A DNA stretch of 64,000 nucleotides. It comes from Minisyncoccota bacterium (GTDB lineage: Bacteria > Patescibacteriota > Minisyncoccia > UBA6257 > JAGOQP01). The stretch covers positions 2,259 through 66,258 of the forward strand of contig JAGOQP010000002.1 in NCBI GenBank assembly GCA_017991375.1, given 5' to 3'. Of the stretch, positions 11,069 to 51,948 are shown piece by piece; the first letter of the stretch is position 1, and each line of letters begins with the position of its first letter. Made by a program: the position numbers and the translations under genes. A model generated the notes under the pieces. The model saw nothing but the letters and a program-made list of their open reading frames with translations. It was not told the DNA's origin and did no database searches.

Positions 11069-11129
11069 GCGATTATCAATTAACGATGAAAAGTAAAAGA
11101 TGAATGATCGTCCGCTCCTTCCTTCTTCA

Positions 11130-11298
11130 TTCAACGTTCAACTTTCCACACCCCGTCCACTCTTCGGCTTGCCCTGTTCTCACTCGTTTAACTTTCCACT
11201 TTCCACTCGTTCGTACCCCCGAGAGGAATATCCTTCGCCTCTCGTTTCGCCTTGCTTTCGTTCGTTTAACTTTCCACTTTTCACTTTCCACTCGTTCG
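11130..11298 (-). repeat. tRNA-Arg(CCU) 3'-flank element: GGAAAGTTAAACGA-type repeats plus a duplicated tRNA 3' end
   Basis: Bottom strand reads tRNA - CGAACGAGTGGAAAGTGAAAAGTGGAAAGTTAAACGAA - CGAAACGAGAGGCGAAGGA - TATTCCTCTCGGGGGTA (copy of the tRNA 3' 17 nt, top-strand 11215-11231) - further GGAAAGTTAAACGA repeats; same architecture as at 26205-26436. Confidence 0.7.
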
Positions 11299-11371
11299 TA
11301 CCCCCGAGAGGAATCGAACCTCTATCTATCCCTTAGGACGGGACTGTTCTAATCCGTTGAACTACGAGGGT
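11299..11371 (-). tRNA. tRNA-Arg (anticodon CCU)
   Basis: Reverse-complement: acceptor ACCCTCG/CGGGGGT, D-arm GTTC-AACGGATTA-GAAC, anticodon stem GTCCC/GGGAT with loop GTCCTAA, T-arm AGAGG-TTCGATT-CCTCT; 73 nt. Confidence 0.75.
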
Positions 11372-13013
11372 TTATAAGCAAAAAACACGTTGAAAACAGC
11401 CCTTGGGTATTGTATGCTAAGTGCGCATAAAAATTCAAATACCATGGGCCTATGGTATACCGGTAGAACGCCTCCATGGCATGGAGGAGAACGGGGTTCA
11501 ATTCCCCGTAGGTCCACCAAAGTTGATTAGTCGCCTCGCTCGGCGCTTCGCGCCTCGCTTCGGCAGGCATTTCCGCAAGGAAATGCCAAGGGTTTTTGAA
11601 ATCAATCGTCAATTTTCCCGCCGCAAGGCGGCGGTTCGAGCCGATGGTTTTGAGAAAATTTTTCATTTCCGAAAAATTTTCAGACAAAATGAGATTTTTG
11701 GCTTGGTTGGCCTCTAAAATCCAATTTCGGGTGAGTTCGAGCCAATGATTTCCTTTTCGCTCAAAATCCGATAATTTTTCCTCAATATCTTTCTTTTCCG
11801 CCATTAGTTTGTTTTTCTTTTCCTGAAATTCCGCCAGTTCAAAACTGCCTTCAAGATAGCCGTCCATTAAGCGGTCTATTTTTGTTTTTATGGCGGAAAG
11901 TTCGGTTTTAAGATTTTGAGCGAAAAGGTCTGATGTTTGGCGGTTTTCGCTTTCCCATTCTTTCACTTTGCAAAGATATTTTTCCCGCCAAACATCGGGC
12001 AAAGAAACTTTTTGACAAATCTCTTTTACTTGCTCGGTCAAAACTTCTTCCCGCAAAAAGCGAGCTTGAGAACAATTTTGCGTTTTGCTTTTGTGGGTGC
12101 AACGATAATAAACAAATTTTAGTCCGCTTTTCTTGATGTGCCGTTCGGCTGTTATGGCATATCCGCACTCGCCACAAACCGCAAAATTGAGAAATTGAAA
12201 GTTTTTCGGTCCTCGCTTTTTGCGGGGCTTGCCGTTTGTGATTAACGCTTCTTGTATTTGGTCAAAAAGTTTCTTTGAAATCATTGGCTTATGCGATCCT
12301 TGATGAATTTCGCCACGATAGCGAAAATGTCCGTAATAGAATGGATTAGTCAAAATTTTCTGAATGGTGGAAAGATGAGGCAGTTTCCCGTCTTTGCCAA
12401 CCAAGCCAAGAGAAAACATTTTGCCTTGAATAGCGGTAAGCGTGTAATTGCCAGTGGCAAAAGCCCGCAAAACTTCTTTCACTTTGTTAAAAGTTTTTCT
12501 ATCGGGTTCTATAGTTCGCAGACGAGGTTCGTTGAAATATCCGAGCGGGGCTTTTGCCGATAGCTCACCGCGTCTTATTTTCTGCCTGATTCCGCGCAAA
12601 ATGTTTTCTCTTAAATTGTCGGTGTAATACTTTGCTTGTCCGAAGGCGACAGACAACATAAATTTTCCCTGCGGTGTCGCTTCAAACCAAAATGTGGGGA
12701 ATTTTAGCGATTCAATCTTTTTTGTGTCCACAAGGTAAATTACTTTTCCGCCGTCTATTGAATTTCTAGCCAATCTATCGGGATTCCACGCTAAAATTCC
12801 CGAAGCGTTGCCTTTTTCAATTTCCGAAAGCATAAAATTAAAAACTTCTCGGCCCGGCTCTTTGGCTGTTTTGCTTTCGTAAAATTCTTTGACGACAAAA
12901 AGATTGTTTTGTTTGGCAAACTCGCGAAGTTCCGTGAGCTGGGCCTCAATAGACAAAACTTGTCTTTCCTCGTCCTCGCTTGATTTGCGACAATAGATAA
13001 AGTATTTTATCAT
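11349..13013 (-). CDS. large serine recombinase (resolvase/invertase N-terminal domain + recombinase domain + zinc ribbon + coiled coil)
   Basis: N-terminus MIKYFIYCRKSSEDEERQVLSIEAQ...AWNPDRLARN (serine-recombinase catalytic domain); CGECGYAITAERH...YYRCTHK zinc ribbon. The ORF has no stop until 11349, so it reads through IR-A, antisense tRNA-Ala and into tRNA-Arg; the true C-terminus is probably upstream (~455 aa to the IR boundary). Confidence 0.85.
   Translation of the reverse strand: MIKYFIYCRKSSEDEERQVLSIEAQLTELREFAKQNNLFVVKEFYESKTAKEPGREVFNFMLSEIEKGNASGILAWNPDRLARNSIDGGKVIYLVDTKKIESLKFPTFWFEATPQGKFMLSVAFGQAKYYTDNLRENILRGIRQKIRRGELSAKAPLGYFNEPRLRTIEPDRKTFNKVKEVLRAFATGNYTLTAIQGKMFSLGLVGKDGKLPHLSTIQKILTNPFYYGHFRYRGEIHQGSHKPMISKKLFDQIQEALITNGKPRKKRGPKNFQFLNFAVCGECGYAITAERHIKKSGLKFVYYRCTHKSKTQNCSQARFLREEVLTEQVKEICQKVSLPDVWREKYLCKVKEWESENRQTSDLFAQNLKTELSAIKTKIDRLMDGYLEGSFELAEFQEKKNKLMAEKKDIEEKLSDFERKGNHWLELTRNWILEANQAKNLILSENFSEMKNFLKTIGSNRRLAAGKLTIDFKNPWHFLAEMPAEARREAPSEATNQLWWTYGELNPVLLHAMEAFYRYTIGPWYLNFYAHLAYNTQGLFSTCFLLINPRSSTD
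11446..11519 (+). tRNA. tRNA-Ala (anticodon GGC), CCA encoded
   Basis: Acceptor GGGCCTA/TAGGTCC with the G3:U70 Ala identity pair; anticodon stem CCTCC/GGAGG with loop ATGGCAT; T-arm CGGGG-TTCAATT-CCCCG; ends ACCA. Confidence 0.8.
11514..11637. repeat. IR-A left copy (124 bp)
   Basis: Reverse complement of 13156-13279 with 2-3 mismatches; contains hairpins GGCATTTCC-gcaa-GGAAATGCC and CCGCCGC-aa-GGCGGCGG; outer end overlaps the tRNA-Ala CCACCA. Confidence 0.9.
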
Positions 13014-13956: not shown

Positions 13957-14070
13957 AAACAACATCGGGGTGTTTAAAAGTTGCCTTTTTAGCCTAATTT
14001 GATATAATAAGTTTAATATGTTTCTACATAATATATACAAAAATACCACACTTTCTTTTCCTACCGTCAC

Positions 14071-14113
14071 TTAACCGGTTGTTTTAGTGCATGAGCAAAA
14101 AACAACCGGTTAA
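14071..14113. terminator. inverted repeat TTAACCGGTTGTTTT-N11-AAAACAACCGGTTAA followed by T-rich tract (terminator and/or operator)
   Basis: 15-bp perfect arms, downstream ttgttttttaaatttt; lies between the xre gene and the rnk-like gene. Confidence 0.4.
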
Positions 14114-14140
14114 AACGGTTGTTTTTTAAATTTTAAACCT

Positions 14141-14536
14141 ATGACCAACATATATATTACAAAAAATGATCACAAAAAATTGATCAAGTTGATAAATGAA
14201 AAATTGCCGGATAACGACAGTACTCGTTCTTTGCTTTCTGAACTTAAAAGAGCGGAAATTGTTGAACCGGAAAAGATCCCGGCCAATATCATCACCATGA
14301 ATTCCTTGGTGAATTTTACAGATGTAGATTCGGGGACGGAACTTGAGTATCGGTTGGTTTTCCCCGAGGATGCCGACATTGCTCAACGCAAGATATCGGT
14401 GATTTCTCCGGTGGGGTGTGCTTTATTGGGGTATCGCGTTGGTGATATCATTAATCTTAAAACACCGAGCGGAGAGAAAAAAATCAAAGTCGAAAAAATA
14501 TTGCACCAACCCGAAGCCGAAGGCAATTATGAATAA
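14141..14536 (+). CDS. Rnk-like regulator (GreA/GreB C-terminal FKBP-like domain)
   Basis: C-terminus ISVISPVGCALLGYRVGDIINLKTPSGEKKIKVEKI matches the GreA/GreB C-terminal domain consensus; 131 aa, as for Rnk. Confidence 0.65.
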   Translation: MTNIYITKNDHKKLIKLINEKLPDNDSTRSLLSELKRAEIVEPEKIPANIITMNSLVNFTDVDSGTELEYRLVFPEDADIAQRKISVISPVGCALLGYRVGDIINLKTPSGEKKIKVEKILHQPEAEGNYE

Positions 14537-15185
14537 TATGATAAACAAGAATAAAATAAGCACAACAATCCGCTTTTTGATATTGTCTGACTTTTTTCTT
14601 TTTTTTGCTGTCGGTTTATTGGCCCCAATATTCGCCGTCTTTGTCCTTGAAAATATAGAAAATAAAATAGAAGTTATCGGTTTTGCCATGTCTTGCTACT
14701 GGTTGACCAGAGTGATTATGGTTGTTCCACTTAGTCGGCTGATGGATAAAATCAGAGGTGAAATTGACGAATGTTCGTTCATGATTATTGGCACCTTTTT
14801 AATATCAATCATTCCTTTGTTTTACATCATGTCATCTGCCCCTTGGCATATTTATGTATTGCAGATAGTGAACGGAATTGCTAACTCTATGGCGGTTCCG
14901 GCTTGGCGTATTCTCTTTACCAATCACATAGATAAAAAAATTGTTGGTCTTGAATGGTCGTTAGAAGATGTCGGGGTTGGCATCGCTACGGCCTCCAGCG
15001 CCACTATCGGCGCTTTTATTGCCAGCAAACTGGGTTTTAACGTTTTGTTTGGAATGATTTCGTTTTTTGGTTTATTAGCGACAATAATTCTTATTGTTTT
15101 GAGCAAGAAAAAAGGAATGATTTTAAGTAAATTTATCATCAATAAAGCGGAAAAAGCACCGCTCAAGTTGGATACTTTTAAATAA
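14526..15185 (+). CDS. six-TM half-size MFS-like membrane transporter
   Basis: Six predicted TM helices; start taken at ATG 14526, overlapping the upstream gene end. Confidence 0.45.
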   Translation: MMNNMINKNKISTTIRFLILSDFFLFFAVGLLAPIFAVFVLENIENKIEVIGFAMSCYWLTRVIMVVPLSRLMDKIRGEIDECSFMIIGTFLISIIPLFYIMSSAPWHIYVLQIVNGIANSMAVPAWRILFTNHIDKKIVGLEWSLEDVGVGIATASSATIGAFIASKLGFNVLFGMISFFGLLATIILIVLSKKKGMILSKFIINKAEKAPLKLDTFK

Positions 15186-15189
15186 ATTT

Positions 15190-16122
15190 ATGGCAATCAA
15201 TTTATTAATTTTTATTATCTCGCTTTACGCCATTGCCAAAGGAGCGACAATGGCCACAAAATATTCCGTCAAACTGGCAGAAAATTTTAGAATCTCAAAA
15301 TTTCTGGTCGGTTTCATGATCGTGGCAATAATTTCAATCCTCCCCGAAACATTTGTTGCCATTAATGCTTCATTGGAAAATATTCCCTCATTCGGACTTG
15401 GTACTCTGTTCGGATCAAATGTCGCTGACTTGACTTTAGTTTTTGCGGTAGTTGTGTTTCTCACCGGCAAAAAGTTAAAAGTTGAAGGGAAAATTTTAAA
15501 GAATAACATTGTGTATCCATTTATACTTTTATTGCCATTAATATTGGGTTTAAATGGACACTATTCGAGACTTGAGGGTCTGACTCTGATTGTTGCGGGA
15601 GGAATATTTTATTATCTTGCTCTGAGAAACGGAACTAACCATTCTGCCGTGGTACACAATGGGCATAACGGGAAAAGCAAAAACTTTCTACTTCTATTAT
15701 TTAGCATGGCAATCTTATTGGTAGGATCACATTTTACCGTTACTTCTGCTGTAGGAATCGCCAATTATTTTAATATAAACCCTGTTCTTATTGGAATGCT
15801 TGTCGTAGGACTTGGTACAACCATTCCAGAATTACTTTTCTCACTAAAATCTGTCAAAAAACACGATGATTCGTTAGCTGTCGGAGATATTCTCGGTACA
15901 GTGCTTGCTGATGCTACTATCGTAGTGGGGATACTCGCCTTGATCAATCCATTTTCATTTCCACAAAAAATCATTTATATAACTGGCATGTTTATGGTCG
16001 GCGCTTCGTTTATGTTGTTTAAATTTTTGAAAACTGGCCGTACTCTTTCAAAAAAAGAAGCTTGTTTGTTGATTATTTACTGGTTGCTTTTTGTAGTTGT
16101 GGAATTTACGGTAAACAGGTAA
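15190..16122 (+). CDS. CaCA-family cation/Ca2+ antiporter (YrbG-like)
   Basis: Two alpha-repeat motifs: ISILPETFVAI and GLGTTIPELLFSL; about 10 TM helices. Confidence 0.7.
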   Translation: MAINLLIFIISLYAIAKGATMATKYSVKLAENFRISKFLVGFMIVAIISILPETFVAINASLENIPSFGLGTLFGSNVADLTLVFAVVVFLTGKKLKVEGKILKNNIVYPFILLLPLILGLNGHYSRLEGLTLIVAGGIFYYLALRNGTNHSAVVHNGHNGKSKNFLLLLFSMAILLVGSHFTVTSAVGIANYFNINPVLIGMLVVGLGTTIPELLFSLKSVKKHDDSLAVGDILGTVLADATIVVGILALINPFSFPQKIIYITGMFMVGASFMLFKFLKTGRTLSKKEACLLIIYWLLFVVVEFTVNR

Positions 16123-16579: not shown

Positions 16580-16667
16580 CTAATCACTCCAGTTATAGAT
16601 TAGTCCTTCTCTGGCTGATGGTAATTATCCGTTTCACTTTCTACGTTTAACATTCCACTCTTCTTTG

Positions 16668-25942: not shown

Positions 25943-26132
25943 TGCTTTTTGGATGTTGATTAATTGCTCATACGTCCCCGCCCTTTTGATTTCATAAAAA
26001 GGGCGGGGTTTGATTTTAGGAGCGCATTATCGGTACACTTATTAAGTAGATGAACATCCTTACGCTTTGAGTTTCTTATTCTGTTTTAATCTGCGTTGTT
26101 AGTGGTCAGTGGTAGGTTGTTAGTTACTATTT

Positions 26133-26204
26133 GCCCCCATAGTTCAATGGATAGAACGACTCCCTTCTAAGGAGTAAATCTAGGTTCGATTCCTAGCGGG
26201 GGTA
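26133..26204 (+). tRNA. tRNA-Arg (anticodon UCU)
   Basis: Acceptor GCCCCCA/CGGGGGT, D-arm GTTC-AATGGATA-GAAC, anticodon stem ACTCC/GGAGT with loop CTTCTAA, T-arm CTAGG-TTCGATT-CCTAG. Confidence 0.8.
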
Positions 26205-26356
26205 CGGAGTATCCACGAGCAAGCAAATAATTTTGCTTGCGTCAGGAATCGAACGCCGGAGCTTGTGCGAGTGAGCACACGAGCACGCGAGGCGGTGCCT
26301 AGCCCGAGTTGAGCGACGGCGAAACGAGAGGCGAAGGAGATTTCCTAGCGGGGGTA
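26205..26356 (+). repeat. tRNA 3'-associated conserved structured element ending in a duplicated tRNA-Arg 3' end
   Basis: Hairpin GCAAGCAAATAATTTTGCTTGC; core GAATCGAACGCCGGAGCTTGTGCGAGTGAGCACACGAGCACGCGAGGCGGTGCCTAGCCCGAGTTGAGCGACGGCGAAACGAGAGGCGAAGG; then TTTCCTAGCGGGGGTA, which equals the last 16 nt of the tRNA. The same core lies after tRNA-Tyr (51172-51373); a covarying version lies after tRNA-His (27152-27310). Confidence 0.8.
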
Positions 26357-26436
26357 CGAACGAGTGGAAAGTGAAAAGTGGAAAGTTAAACGAATAAAAG
26401 CAAAGCAAATTGAAGGATGGAAAGTTAAACGATTGG
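26357..26436 (+). repeat. GGAAAGTTAAACGA-type short direct repeats
   Basis: CGAACGAGTGGAAAGTGAAAAGTGGAAAGTTAAACGAA...GGATGGAAAGTTAAACGA; the same block occurs (reverse strand) beside tRNA-Arg(CCU) at 11130-11298. Confidence 0.8.
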
Positions 26437-27151: not shown

Positions 27152-27310
27152 GAATAGATTTACGTCTATTTTTGTGGCTAAGCGAGCAAACTGCTTTGCT
27201 CGCGTAAGAAGTTGAACGCCGGAATATGTGCAATTATAAATTGCACAATGAGGCGGCGACTAGACTGTGCTATTTAGCACAAGTCGGAGTCAACTCCCTT
27301 TAGCCACCCA
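27152..27310 (+). repeat. tRNA 3'-associated structured element ending in a duplicated tRNA-His 3' end
   Basis: Hairpin GCGAGCAAACTGCTTTGCTCGC; core GAAGTTGAACGCCGGAATATGTGCAATTATAAATTGCACAATGAGGCGGCGACTAGACTGTGC... with compensatory change in the GTGC...GCAC hairpin relative to the Arg/Tyr copies; then TCAACTCCCTTTAGCCACCCA, equal to the tRNA-His 3' 21 nt. Confidence 0.75.
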
Positions 27311-27315
27311 AAATT

Positions 27316-51171: not shown

Positions 51172-51373
51172 CATAATAAAATTATTTTCCTTCACGCAGT
51201 GAGCGTGAGGGAGTAATTTTATTAAGTTGGTCAAGAAAAAACCAACTGCTTGGTTTTTGAGTGAGAGTCGAACGCCGGAGCTTGTGCGAGTGACCACACG
51301 AGCACGCGAGGCGGTGGCTAGTCTGAGTCGAGTGACGACGAGACAAGAGGCGAGGCCGACTCTCACCCTACCC
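51172..51373 (+). repeat. tRNA 3'-associated conserved element ending in a duplicated tRNA-Tyr 3' end
   Basis: Hairpin CCAAGAAAAAACCAA-ctgc-TTGGTTTTTG; core GAGTCGAACGCCGGAGCTTGTGCGAGTGACCACACGAGCACGCGAGGCGGTGGCTAGTCTGAGTCGAGTGACGACGAGACAAGAGGCGAGGCC; then GACTCTCACCCTACCCA, equal to the last 17 nt of the tRNA. Confidence 0.8.
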
Positions 51374-51521
51374 ACTCGACGCGCCCTGAGTAAAATCGAA
51401 GGGCTTGCTCGTGGCAAGCCACATTCTATGAGTGAATTTCAAACACGCACGATAATCAGTTGTTATGAATTTTGTTGGTTCCTTGTTGTTAGTCGTGGGT
51501 GGTTAGTCGTTAGTTATATAT

Positions 51522-51545
51522 GCCATAGCTCAGCTGGGTTTATGG
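51522..51545 (+). repeat. truncated tRNA 5'-fragment + GTTTA module
   Basis: GCCATAGCTCAGCTGG-GTTTATGG; a decayed copy of the 5'-associated element upstream of tRNA-Thr(UGU). Confidence 0.5.
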
Positions 51546-51837: not shown

Positions 51838-51948
51838 GCCAATGTAGCTCAGCTGGGTTTAAAGCAAACAATTTTGCTTTAAACGGGAAATCCAAAAAGA
51901 TATATTGGACTTTCCCCGGAAGAGCAAGCAACCGAAGGTATTGCGATG
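51838..51948 (+). repeat. tRNA 5'-associated element: duplicated tRNA-Thr(GGU) 5' end (19 nt) plus conserved two-hairpin module
   Basis: GCCAATGTAGCTCAGCTGG, then GTTTAAAGCAAACAATTTTGCTTTAAACGGGAAATCCAAAAAGATATATTGGACTTTCCCCGGAAGAGCAAGCAACCGAAGGTATTGCGATG; the intact tRNA begins 47 nt later. Confidence 0.8.

Follow-up and report, generated by a model that had tools for sequence, protein, structure and literature searches.

A repetitive flank of tRNA-Arg(CCU) as a probable relic of a structured element family at tRNA gene ends in Patescibacteria

The 3' flank of the tRNA-Arg(CCU) gene raises a simple question: why does the end of the tRNA recur there among short repeats, and why is the same repeat block found behind a second arginine tRNA? 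The gene lies on the minus strand at positions 11299–11371 of the 64,000-nt stretch of DNA that was analysed as a whole (the window) and was called by both ARAGORN and Rfam; its positions ~57–73 are the tail that is repeated. Reading away from it on the same strand, we find a 38-nt trailer, CGAACGAGTGGAAAGTGAAAAGTGGAAAGTTAAACGAA (11261–11298), then a segment (11230–11260) made of CGAAAGCAAGG, the junction 19-mer CGAAACGAGAGGCGAAGGA (11231–11249) and T(A), then a 17-nt second copy of the tRNA 3' end, ATTCCTCTCGGGGGTAC (11213–11229), which belongs to repeat family D3 (39 nt, 97%), and finally a second trailer (11184–11212), recognised by motif scan and repeat analysis. The original prediction had described this order of trailer repeats, junction motif, tail copy and second trailer run, and the order holds on the minus strand; the tail copy has the predicted length of 17 nt and lies two bases away from 11215–11231, where it had been placed, and the second run said to complete the locus is there, shortened by 7 nt relative to the first. 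Further out (11120–11183, minus strand) lie a decayed remnant of the second unit and a probable third tail and trailer (GTGAGAACAGGGCAAGCCGAAGAGTGGA, CGGGGTGT and GGAAAGTTGAACG), recognised through repeat families D1 and D2 at 68–80% identity and partly by eye. The local repeat unit measures 39 nt, with 97% identity and 85-nt spacing, and the set of tail, trailer and remnant is present about three times, its decay rising from unit to unit.

The second arginine tRNA is tRNA-Arg(UCU) (26133–26204, plus strand; ARAGORN and Rfam). The same repeat block had been reported to follow its duplicated end, and the trailer of the first CCU unit indeed matches positions 26357–26394 in 38 of 38 nucleotides. 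The trailers are A/G-rich and internally repetitive, a property that speaks for a chance similarity of low-complexity, purine-rich sequence. Shuffle controls exclude such a similarity: the six copies of GGAAAGTTAAACGA, four exact and two near, were reached in 0 of 100 shuffles. The junction 19-mer has exactly two copies in the window at up to 3 mismatches, with 0.03 expected. In the pairwise alignment of the two flanks, identity runs unbroken from GGCGAAACGAGAGGCGAAGGA through the tail copy into the trailer and then falls to ~70% over ~50 nt. Because this identity spans motif, tail copy and trailer, the likeness between the Arg(CCU) and Arg(UCU) flanks is not confined to low complexity. With 38/38 and 19/19 identities, tail copies that are specific to their tRNA and a family of ~140 members to account for, the probability of a chance origin is negligible.

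The two arginine flanks are part of a larger set. Behind four of the ten tRNA genes of the window, Arg(CCU), Arg(UCU), His(GUG) and Tyr(GUA), there is a second copy of the last 16–20 nt of the gene itself, and at the last three the intervening 140–190 nt are homologous to one another; each of these three genes is followed by a full element of ~150–200 nt. At tRNA-Arg(UCU) the element consists, on the plus strand, of a hairpin P0, AGCAAGCAAATAATTTTGCTTGCG (26218–26241), identified by folding and by homologous hairpins in other copies; an antisense arm, TCAGGAATCGAAC (26242–26254), which is the reverse complement of the tRNA T-loop and 3' T-stem; a conserved core with helices P2–P5 (26255–26340), within a covariance-model hit of 114.6 bits (26235–26361); and a second copy of the tRNA 3' end of 16–17 nt (26341–26357; family D2, 17 nt, 100%). 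Distal to the full element is a trailer with a decayed and truncated unit (26357–26436, plus strand), which motif scan, alignment and repeat analysis identify as a decayed copy of the CCU-type array. The element of tRNA-His(GUG) (27198–27313, plus strand; 69.3 bits; tail copy 27293–27312) also carries an acceptor complement, GTGGCTAA, in addition to P0, and folds into a cloverleaf-like structure that reuses the tRNA-His acceptor stem (z = -7.6). The element of tRNA-Tyr(GUA) lies at 51254–51379 (plus strand; 113.2 bits; fold z = -6.4; tail copy 51357–51375). These are exactly the three full copies that the covariance model detects in the window (E from 4e-33 to 3e-19), and all three fold far better than shuffled sequences, at z-scores between -3.5 and -7.6. 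The Arg(UCU) and Tyr cores are ~89% identical, the tRNAs themselves being unrelated. The junction motif ends the 3' elements, as had been proposed, exactly at tRNA-Arg(UCU) and in variant form at tRNA-Tyr and tRNA-His. At tRNA-Pro(UGG), motif scan and flank comparison reveal the trailer motif only, AAAGAAGAGTGGAATGTTAAACGTAGAAAGTGAAACGG (16620–16666, minus strand), possibly a relic of an element 5' end.

Set beside these copies, the flank of tRNA-Arg(CCU) looks like a deletion product. Its insert retains the 38-nt trailer and the last ~28–30 nt of the core, that is, the 3' strand of P4 together with P5, and its 19-mer is the end of the full core at 26320–26338; in the alignment P0, the antisense arm, P2, P3 and most of P4 are missing. 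The 'variant module' of the original prediction does not form a distinct type of module: it is an internally deleted remnant. Judged from its sequence, the locus can be read as a tandemly repeated relic that keeps both element ends; in every unit, what flanks the tail repeat is no more than the 5' trailer motif and the final ~30 nt of the core. Such a state seems to be rare: in a comparison with non-LTR (SINE-like) retroposons, which are often truncated at the 5' end and have target duplications of variable length, the spacing of the tail copies fell below 105 nt in 2 of 81 exact duplications, one of them being the Arg(CCU) locus, which alone of the two keeps the core 3' end. The GGAAAGTTAAACGA runs are this genome's version of a ACGAACGAAGTGAGT-like trailer motif, which is ~7-fold enriched directly after Patescibacteria tRNA genes and is the 5' end of one element subtype ('type A').

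A full element follows immediately after an intact tRNA gene, in the same orientation, and is composed, from 5' to 3', of a linker, P0, the antisense arm, a core of ~95 nt in the form of a three-way junction and the tail copy (tRNA position ~57 to 73/76). As a linker, some copies have a conserved ACGAACGAAGTGA-type loop and others a terminator-like hairpin. In the window copies P0, often with a CUGC loop, is followed by the antisense segment, GAACGCCGGA, a hairpin, GAGGCGGYGNCTAG, a long irregular hairpin, CGAAG.. and the tail. Arm and tail copy are both specific to the neighbouring tRNA. The arm is the Watson–Crick complement of positions 53–64 of the adjoining tRNA, with identity of 94–96% at positions 59–62 and of 84%, 72% and 44% at positions 63, 64 and 65. 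We also considered that it could be a sense duplicate of the tRNA 5' strands and rejected this: at G:U positions of the T-stem the arm agrees with the complement of the 3' strand in 11 cases and with the tRNA 5' strand in 4, so the arm is genuinely antisense rather than a partial tandem duplicate of the tRNA. Upstream of P0, roughly one copy in four also has a stretch of 7 nt or more, in the range of 8–10 nt, that is complementary to the acceptor 3' strand.

Between positions ~60 and 73 the tail copy matches the tRNA at 90% identity or more; identity starts at ~56–59, the exact ends of the duplication being blurred by the resemblance of the core ends to T-loop halves. The repeat ends at the tRNA 3' end, at a median of 2 nt past position 73, and the duplication is 15–21 nt long or longer, its edge following the tRNA end and not a fixed distance; selection on two functional tRNA ends could explain this right edge equally well. 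The spacing of the duplicated tails is 110–200 nt in 74 of 81 cases and longer in five, mostly arrays, and at many loci the second copy is decayed. An origin of the tail as a reverse transcript of mature tRNA was considered and dismissed. Among 53 genes without an encoded CCA the tail copy has it in nine, and most copies at such genes are without it, so the tail is not generally copied from mature tRNA. Many elements sit behind terminator-like hairpins whose stems extend into long palindromes including the tRNA end; hairpins of this kind between tRNA and element argue against efficient co-transcription. About ten 'orphan' elements are preceded by a conserved sequence of ~100 nt, for which we found no consensus fold and no match in Rfam.

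The three-way-junction fold of the element is conserved and real. From 68 sequences RNAalifold predicted 29 pairs, 22 of them with compensatory changes. Paired cells amount to 93.5%, as against 72% in shuffled alignments (0 of 500 shuffles reach the observed value) and 37–46% when the partners are slid by 1–3 columns; the covariation score is 0.569, compared with 0.18 after shuffling and ~0.1 after sliding. Nearly all column pairs with the highest mutual information are predicted pairs, including that of T-loop position 59 and sites that alternate between tandem G.A and A:U, and no non-nested pairs or pseudoknot stood out in the mutual-information search. In this fold P1 is formed by the antisense arm and the tail copy, P2 (CGCC:GGCG) bears hairpin P3, and P5 (SCU:AGS') bears the long hairpin P4 with its GAC loop. 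A kissing contact of the P0 loop (CUGC) with the P3 loop (CAGCAG) was rejected, the window's own copies being without it. On the tRNA-sense strand, G:U pairs outnumber A:C pairs 44 to 19 in our own tally from the alignment, which speaks for an RNA, or for a folded sense strand, with the same reading direction as the tRNA. An RNA-type fold in turn suggests expression as a tRNA 3' trailer.

The strong covariation also fits a non-coding RNA that benefits the host. Such an RNA, tRNA-like and derived from the 3' trailer, would have been inherited vertically on each tRNA since early Patescibacteria and might act in tRNA 3' processing, in quality control or as a decoy. Its junction bases are conserved in essentially every copy, in part through ascertainment, as 119 loci were found with a pattern that fixes the 'invariant' bases of the core. 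The tail copy stays at least 90% identical through position 73 even where it has no partner strand. Between the orthologous copies L053 and L103 there is a compensatory change from U:A to C:G, which suggests selection on individual resident copies and is thereby as compatible with a host function as with a selfish element.

The pattern GAACGCCGGA-N22-32-GAGGCGGYGNCTAG occurs at no fewer than 119 loci of the species-representative genome collection, where by our own arithmetic ~0.4 chance matches are expected in 596 Gb. A tRNA on the same strand lies 24–250 nt upstream in 95 of 123 pattern hits, and 36 anticodons are represented. Among the matches listed, the records are nearly all Patescibacteria/CPR MAGs, from Saccharibacteria, Paceibacteria, Microgenomates, Uhr-, Yanofsky-, Komeili-, Kaiser-, Moran- and Wolfebacteria and other groups. 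A few records are labelled 'Gammaproteobacteria'; one of these, L012, has a tRNA-Leu locus near-identical to that of the Patescibacteria record L024. A 'delta proteobacterium' hit (L068) that was not confirmed by the covariance model is probably due to chance. In the fetched loci the covariance model recovers ~140 copies, among them ones missed by the pattern, and at some loci, for example L019, every tRNA carries an element, as would suit a host RNA. The proposal that both arginine tRNAs carry related 3' appendages through a shared insertion or recombination mechanism is supported by the recurrence of the same architecture at at least 119 Patescibacteria loci, and it reaches well beyond two tRNAs, to a widespread structured family of tRNA-tail elements in Patescibacteria.

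This family appears to be undescribed. At the gathering score of Rfam 15 only tRNAs were matched in the window; at E ≤ 1 three loci with strong copies returned only tRNAs and chance plastid hits, at E ≤ 5 locus L083 returned nothing relevant, and ARAGORN called no tRNA or tmRNA over the element. We found no description of the element in Rfam 15 or in the searchable literature, the nearest report being one on group I introns (PMC13011429).

The neighbourhood of the elements is not informative as to an enzyme. Clustering of the adjacent ORFs at the 119 loci revealed no recurrent protein family, integrase, recombinase or TnpB; the commonest neighbours are housekeeping genes (IF-2, the CCA-adding enzyme, Mur ligase, YraN, L19), each at 14 loci or fewer. 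The lack of a nearby mobility gene agrees with a host RNA. It is at odds with the idea that the repeats are att-site relics (attL/attR) of integrase-carrying islands that lost their cargo, with a nearby large serine recombinase as the agent at tRNA-Arg(CCU). This idea draws on the T-loop-to-3'-end direct repeats, reportedly the classic identity block of tRNA-integrating elements, and on a 554-aa serine recombinase ORF that abuts tRNA-Arg(CCU). However, this ORF is upstream of the tRNA and outside the repeats, and serine recombinases are not known to create 17-nt duplications; the inserts, moreover, are uniform, with the narrow spacing given above, and have a conserved structured core in place of random cargo remnants. 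We consider att relics highly unlikely.

Occupancy differs between related genomes. In the relative L017, whose GyrB is 78% identical to that of the window and which shares its gene neighbourhood, the site behind tRNA-Arg(UCU) is empty, whereas in the window it is filled; its tRNA-Phe carries an element, and the tRNA-Phe of the window does not; its tRNA-His has a short variant different from that of the window. Tandem arrays of the form tRNA-E2-tail-E1-tail also exist, in which E2 belongs to a second subfamily with the core GAAAGCCGCAG...TTCGTGACC, and in L110 and L116, the two arrays that were studied closely, decay is greatest in the outermost tail. Since occupancy differs between relatives and tandem arrays occur, the element is probably mobile. 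Idiosyncratic hairpins are common to copies within one genome, while the tRNA-specific parts differ; shared hairpins are seen, for example, in Arg(UCU) and Tyr of the window, in two copies of L016 and in L003 versus L023. No filled/empty polymorphism within one species was found, same-strain Logan contigs breaking at the repeats. Look-ups with exact proteins likewise gave only the same strain, on contigs ending at the repeats; the strain is also present in SRR11088371 and SRR11235434. A search of metagenomes for close relatives with empty sites, with the neighbouring CyaB protein as query, brought up relatives at no more than 45% identity, and these had no shared tRNA synteny.

For a resident host RNA these differences would have to be losses through recombination between tail copies, and the likeness of copies within a genome would have to be concerted evolution. 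It is difficult to explain in this way why two subfamilies are stacked in tandem behind one tRNA, or why, between the window and L017, the tRNA-His variants differ and the occupancy of Phe and Arg is reciprocal. The invariant stretches of the ~89% identical Arg(UCU) and Tyr cores, 10–12 nt, are short for gene conversion, and truncated repeated units like those of the flagged locus look like decay. A host RNA thus seems to us rather unlikely.

How a mobile element would reach this arrangement we infer from its anatomy, fold, spread, targets, arrays and differences in occupancy. An enzyme acting in trans, most likely integrase- or transposase-like, would cut in a staggered manner, once at the T-loop and once near the end of the tRNA; the element would enter at the conserved palindromic T-loop (TTCGAA), and the segment from T-loop to 3' end would be duplicated, leaving the tRNA intact. 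Staggered cleavage and fill-in would be like the duplication of a CRISPR repeat by Cas1-type enzymes or of a casposon target, as a resemblance only. Entry has to leave every target tRNA working, and a conservative crossover in the T-loop would graft the tail of the old tRNA onto the new one; duplication of the target segment would avoid this. New units would be inserted beside the tRNA, and older units would be pushed outward together with the old tail, which would produce arrays. The element would presumably be transcribed with the tRNA as its 3' trailer; the arm would pair with the duplicated tail as P1 and close the core, and the resulting compact fold would mimic the acceptor/T-arm half of a tRNA. 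The match of the arm, and of the acceptor complement where there is one, to each tRNA may be templated at insertion or may belong to a guide that selects the target.

We lean, with a confidence slightly better than even, to reading the flagged locus as a decayed member of a family of small non-coding elements that is specific to the 3' ends of Patescibacteria (CPR) tRNA genes, the mechanism just outlined included. It is a possibility, which we put forward only tentatively, that the family is of a new class, either of mobile elements made of structured RNA with a guide or of functional RNAs linked to tRNAs, and makes use of the palindromic T-loop as the single sequence common to all tRNA genes. 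On this reading the arm would select or copy the target, the core would be a ribozyme or a handle for a trans-acting integrase, and insertion would duplicate the tRNA tail in a polar fashion like that of CRISPR arrays.

The abundance of these elements is remarkable for their hosts. Patescibacteria genomes are among the smallest and most streamlined of any bacteria, and yet in the 64-kb window three of ten tRNA genes carry a full appendage of ~150–200 nt and a fourth a remnant. If the element is mobile, it would illustrate a safe way of spreading in a minimal genome, by means of a trans-acting enzyme and a universally conserved feature of an RNA gene, the gene itself being rebuilt. If it is a host RNA, it would be a widespread and apparently undescribed partner of tRNA in a phylum whose RNA processing is poorly understood. 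It also has practical consequences: the elements break short-read assemblies (Logan contigs end there) and give rise to annotated 'pseudogenes' that are tRNA fragments. Our covariance model offers a means of annotating the elements.

Several known systems share features with the tRNA-tail element. The folded single-stranded attP of CTX phage (IMEX elements) and the attC sites of integrons resemble it in layout: ~90 nt from the junction they have an inverted target copy, which can form a stem imitating the double-stranded target; conservation of the structure concerns one strand, and the recombinase need not be encoded in cis. In our element an inverted target copy near one end likewise pairs with the adjacent direct copy (P1, with covariation that includes position 59). 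This raises the explanation that the element is an integration-site mimic in folded single-stranded DNA, in which P1 rebuilds the double-stranded T-loop and T-stem, a host tyrosine recombinase exchanges one pair of strands and replication completes the event. The overall plan is that of an integrated CTX phage, with direct target repeats at both ends and an inverted copy ~95 nt inside, and the strand bias of the conserved structure, the dispensability of a cis gene and the existence of arrays all agree with it. However, conservative recombination would yield a chimeric, non-functional tRNA at each change of target, yet closely related cores are found at 36 anticodons, and such an exchange cannot explain many tRNA targets. 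The target of our element is the tRNA T-arm and not attI or dif, the site of XerCD integration, its junction sequences are strongly conserved, and we found neither phage or integron context nor a rolling-circle replication gene; a scan of IMG/VR with the core pattern gave no hits. A mimic of this type is improbable.

The group I introns of Patescibacteria reside in the same phylum and the same class of host gene, are small and have no protein genes, and the antisense arm resembles their internal guide sequence. They are located in anticodon loops and interrupt the tRNA gene (PMC13011429), while our element follows an intact gene, has no match to the intron model (RF00028) and is about half the size. 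An intron of the T-loop, or a self-inserting ribozyme, would nevertheless account for the arm as an internal guide over the T-loop junction, with the element spliced out or reverse-spliced. Self-splicing tRNA introns abound in Patescibacteria (PMC13011429), the stretch to which the arm is complementary, positions 53–64, extends to both sides of the tail-copy start, and in tRNA-Ser(GGA) of L025, which has no intact first tail, the element lies inside the T-loop of an otherwise complete cloverleaf. This tRNA is the one interrupted case that a brute-force join-and-scan returned, the first-tail region of L026 being masked as Ns. But that makes one interrupted tRNA in ~140 copies, all others being behind an intact gene, and the second tail, decayed at many loci, could not serve there as an exon. 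No group I, group II or ribozyme family of Rfam is matched even at E ≤ 1–5, and by eye, unscored, we saw no G.U pair at the 5' splice site and no terminal G. We think an intron or ribozyme of this kind very doubtful.

Islands and prophages with T-loop-class tyrosine integrases also target the 3' part of a tRNA, regenerate the gene and leave a displaced T-loop-to-3'-end copy downstream. Unlike them, our element is 150–200 nt long, with inserts of 110–200 nt, has no integrase or cargo, possesses a structured core and an antisense arm, and is present as closely related copies on dozens of different tRNAs. Most transposable elements duplicate 2–9 bp of their target, and casposons are known to use tRNA 3' ends. 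Cas1-type integration and casposons have in common with our element a long target duplication and, as far as the examined arrays L110 and L116 go, a polarity in which the youngest-looking unit is beside the tRNA and the degenerate repeat is outermost; in contrast, no Cas1 or casposase gene was seen beside the elements, the inserts are an RNA-like module and neither spacers nor a self-replicating transposon, and the duplication length is not demonstrably fixed. Among mobile elements with RNA guides, IS110 duplicates a 2-nt core and IS605 nothing, and their guide RNA is encoded beside the recombinase or nuclease gene; compared with the IS110 bridge RNA and the TnpB omega-RNA, our element has no adjacent recombinase or TnpB at 119 loci and a duplication of 15–21 nt. 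A subset of copies reproduces the acceptor and T-stem of the neighbouring tRNA, and their RNA would have a tRNA-like 3' end, as in tRNA mimics (the tRNA-like domain of tmRNA, the bacterial Y-RNA-like YrlA, viral tRNA-like structures), and the element is in the position of a 3' external transcribed spacer, like small RNAs derived from 3' trailers. In distinction from tRNA mimics, a domain of 95 nt replaces the T-loop, whichever tRNA is adjacent is the one mimicked, and ARAGORN and Rfam do not recognise the result. Finally, MITEs and REP-type repeats are, like our element, short, non-coding and multi-copy, have no enzyme in cis and give rise to deletion derivatives that keep both ends, as at the flagged locus. 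What sets our element apart from them is that its inverted arms derive from the target and change with the tRNA, in place of terminal repeats specific to the element, that its duplication of 15–21 nt or more ends at the tRNA end, that one structural site of one class of genes is targeted and that its interior covaries in the manner of an RNA.

The element carried behind tRNA genes ends in a displaced tail copy, a second copy of the host tRNA's positions ∼57–73, and this copy seems to retain a trace of the gene's earlier state. It bears CCA at 9 of the 53 tRNA genes that do not themselves encode it (fetched loci L018, L036, L039, L043, L079, L092, L107, L112 and L117), while ∼0.8 would be expected by chance. 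This suggests that CCA was once encoded by the original gene and was lost on arrival of the element.

The elements are not uniform. A second subfamily, distantly related to the standard one, has a core that starts with GAAAGCCGCAG and ends with TTCGTGACC; its copies (L110:470-650, L116:1800-1990 and L113:3990-4150) are stacked, so that the tRNA is followed by the second-subfamily element and then by a standard one. A third, short variant, GAACCGCGGGCC...GAGCGAGAGGC, stands behind tRNA-His of L017, the locus of the window's closest relative. In a subset of elements (L021, L026, L113 and L116) an additional small hairpin, AGCGTACTCGCGG, separates core from tail copy and replaces the T-loop-derived bases. 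About ten 'orphan' elements adjoin no tRNA, and their tail copies resemble tRNA-Ser ends. Five of them are preceded by a conserved sequence of ∼100 nt (..ACCCTTACGGTG..GTTCGAA..AGCCCGCA; upstream of the element in L008, L104, L083:5600-5720, L086 and L006), which has no match in Rfam and lacks a consensus fold.

In the window, GTTGTTAGT occurs in nine exact copies versus 0.48 expected, on the plus strand at 26095, 26116, 26584, 26735, 51485, 51572 and 51822 and on the minus strand at 229 and 55576. The copies are enclosed by TTAGTTGTTAGT-like runs, and tRNA genes start shortly downstream of most of them; the module is probably this genome's tRNA promoter or upstream module. On either side of tRNA-Thr lie the tRNA 5' fragments GCCATAGCTCAGCTGGGTTTA (51523-51545) and GCCAATGTAGCTCAGCTGGGTTTA (51838-51880), which may be a counterpart, on the 5' side, of the tail elements. 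A promoter-like module precedes both fragments, and a hairpin like P0, the one 5' of the antisense arm in full elements, comes after the second (AAAGCAAACAATTTTGCTTT).

Next to tRNA-Arg(CCU), where a decayed element remnant was flagged, is a large serine recombinase ORF of 554 aa (11349-13013, minus strand) with Resolvase, Recombinase and Zn-ribbon domains. It reads on for ∼130 codons, running antisense through tRNA-Ala(GGC) (11446-11519, plus strand, CCA encoded, with its own terminator at 11566-11587) before it enters tRNA-Arg(CCU), of which it covers the initial 23 nt. The overrun represents either an integration junction or a reading frame that has been fused or extended. G+C drops to 0.37 at 14001-16000, and since the genes in this dip (a GreA-like factor, an MFS transporter and a Na/Ca exchanger) sit between the recombinase and tRNA-Pro, the stretch may be a foreign island.

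Some inserts interrupt the tRNA gene itself. In L025:2160-2400 (plus strand) the element lies within ∼150 nt standing in place of the T-loop of tRNA-Ser(GGA), which lacks an intact first tail copy. Folded in full, this sequence forms a cloverleaf whose T-loop is greatly enlarged (–100.8 kcal/mol, z = –4.4); no other such replacement occurs among ∼140 element copies. The tRNA-Phe of L017 (6195-6565, plus strand) was missed by ARAGORN because its anticodon loop holds an insert of ∼300 nt; the window's tRNA-Phe lacks an insert of this type. The L017 insert matches a group I intron in size.
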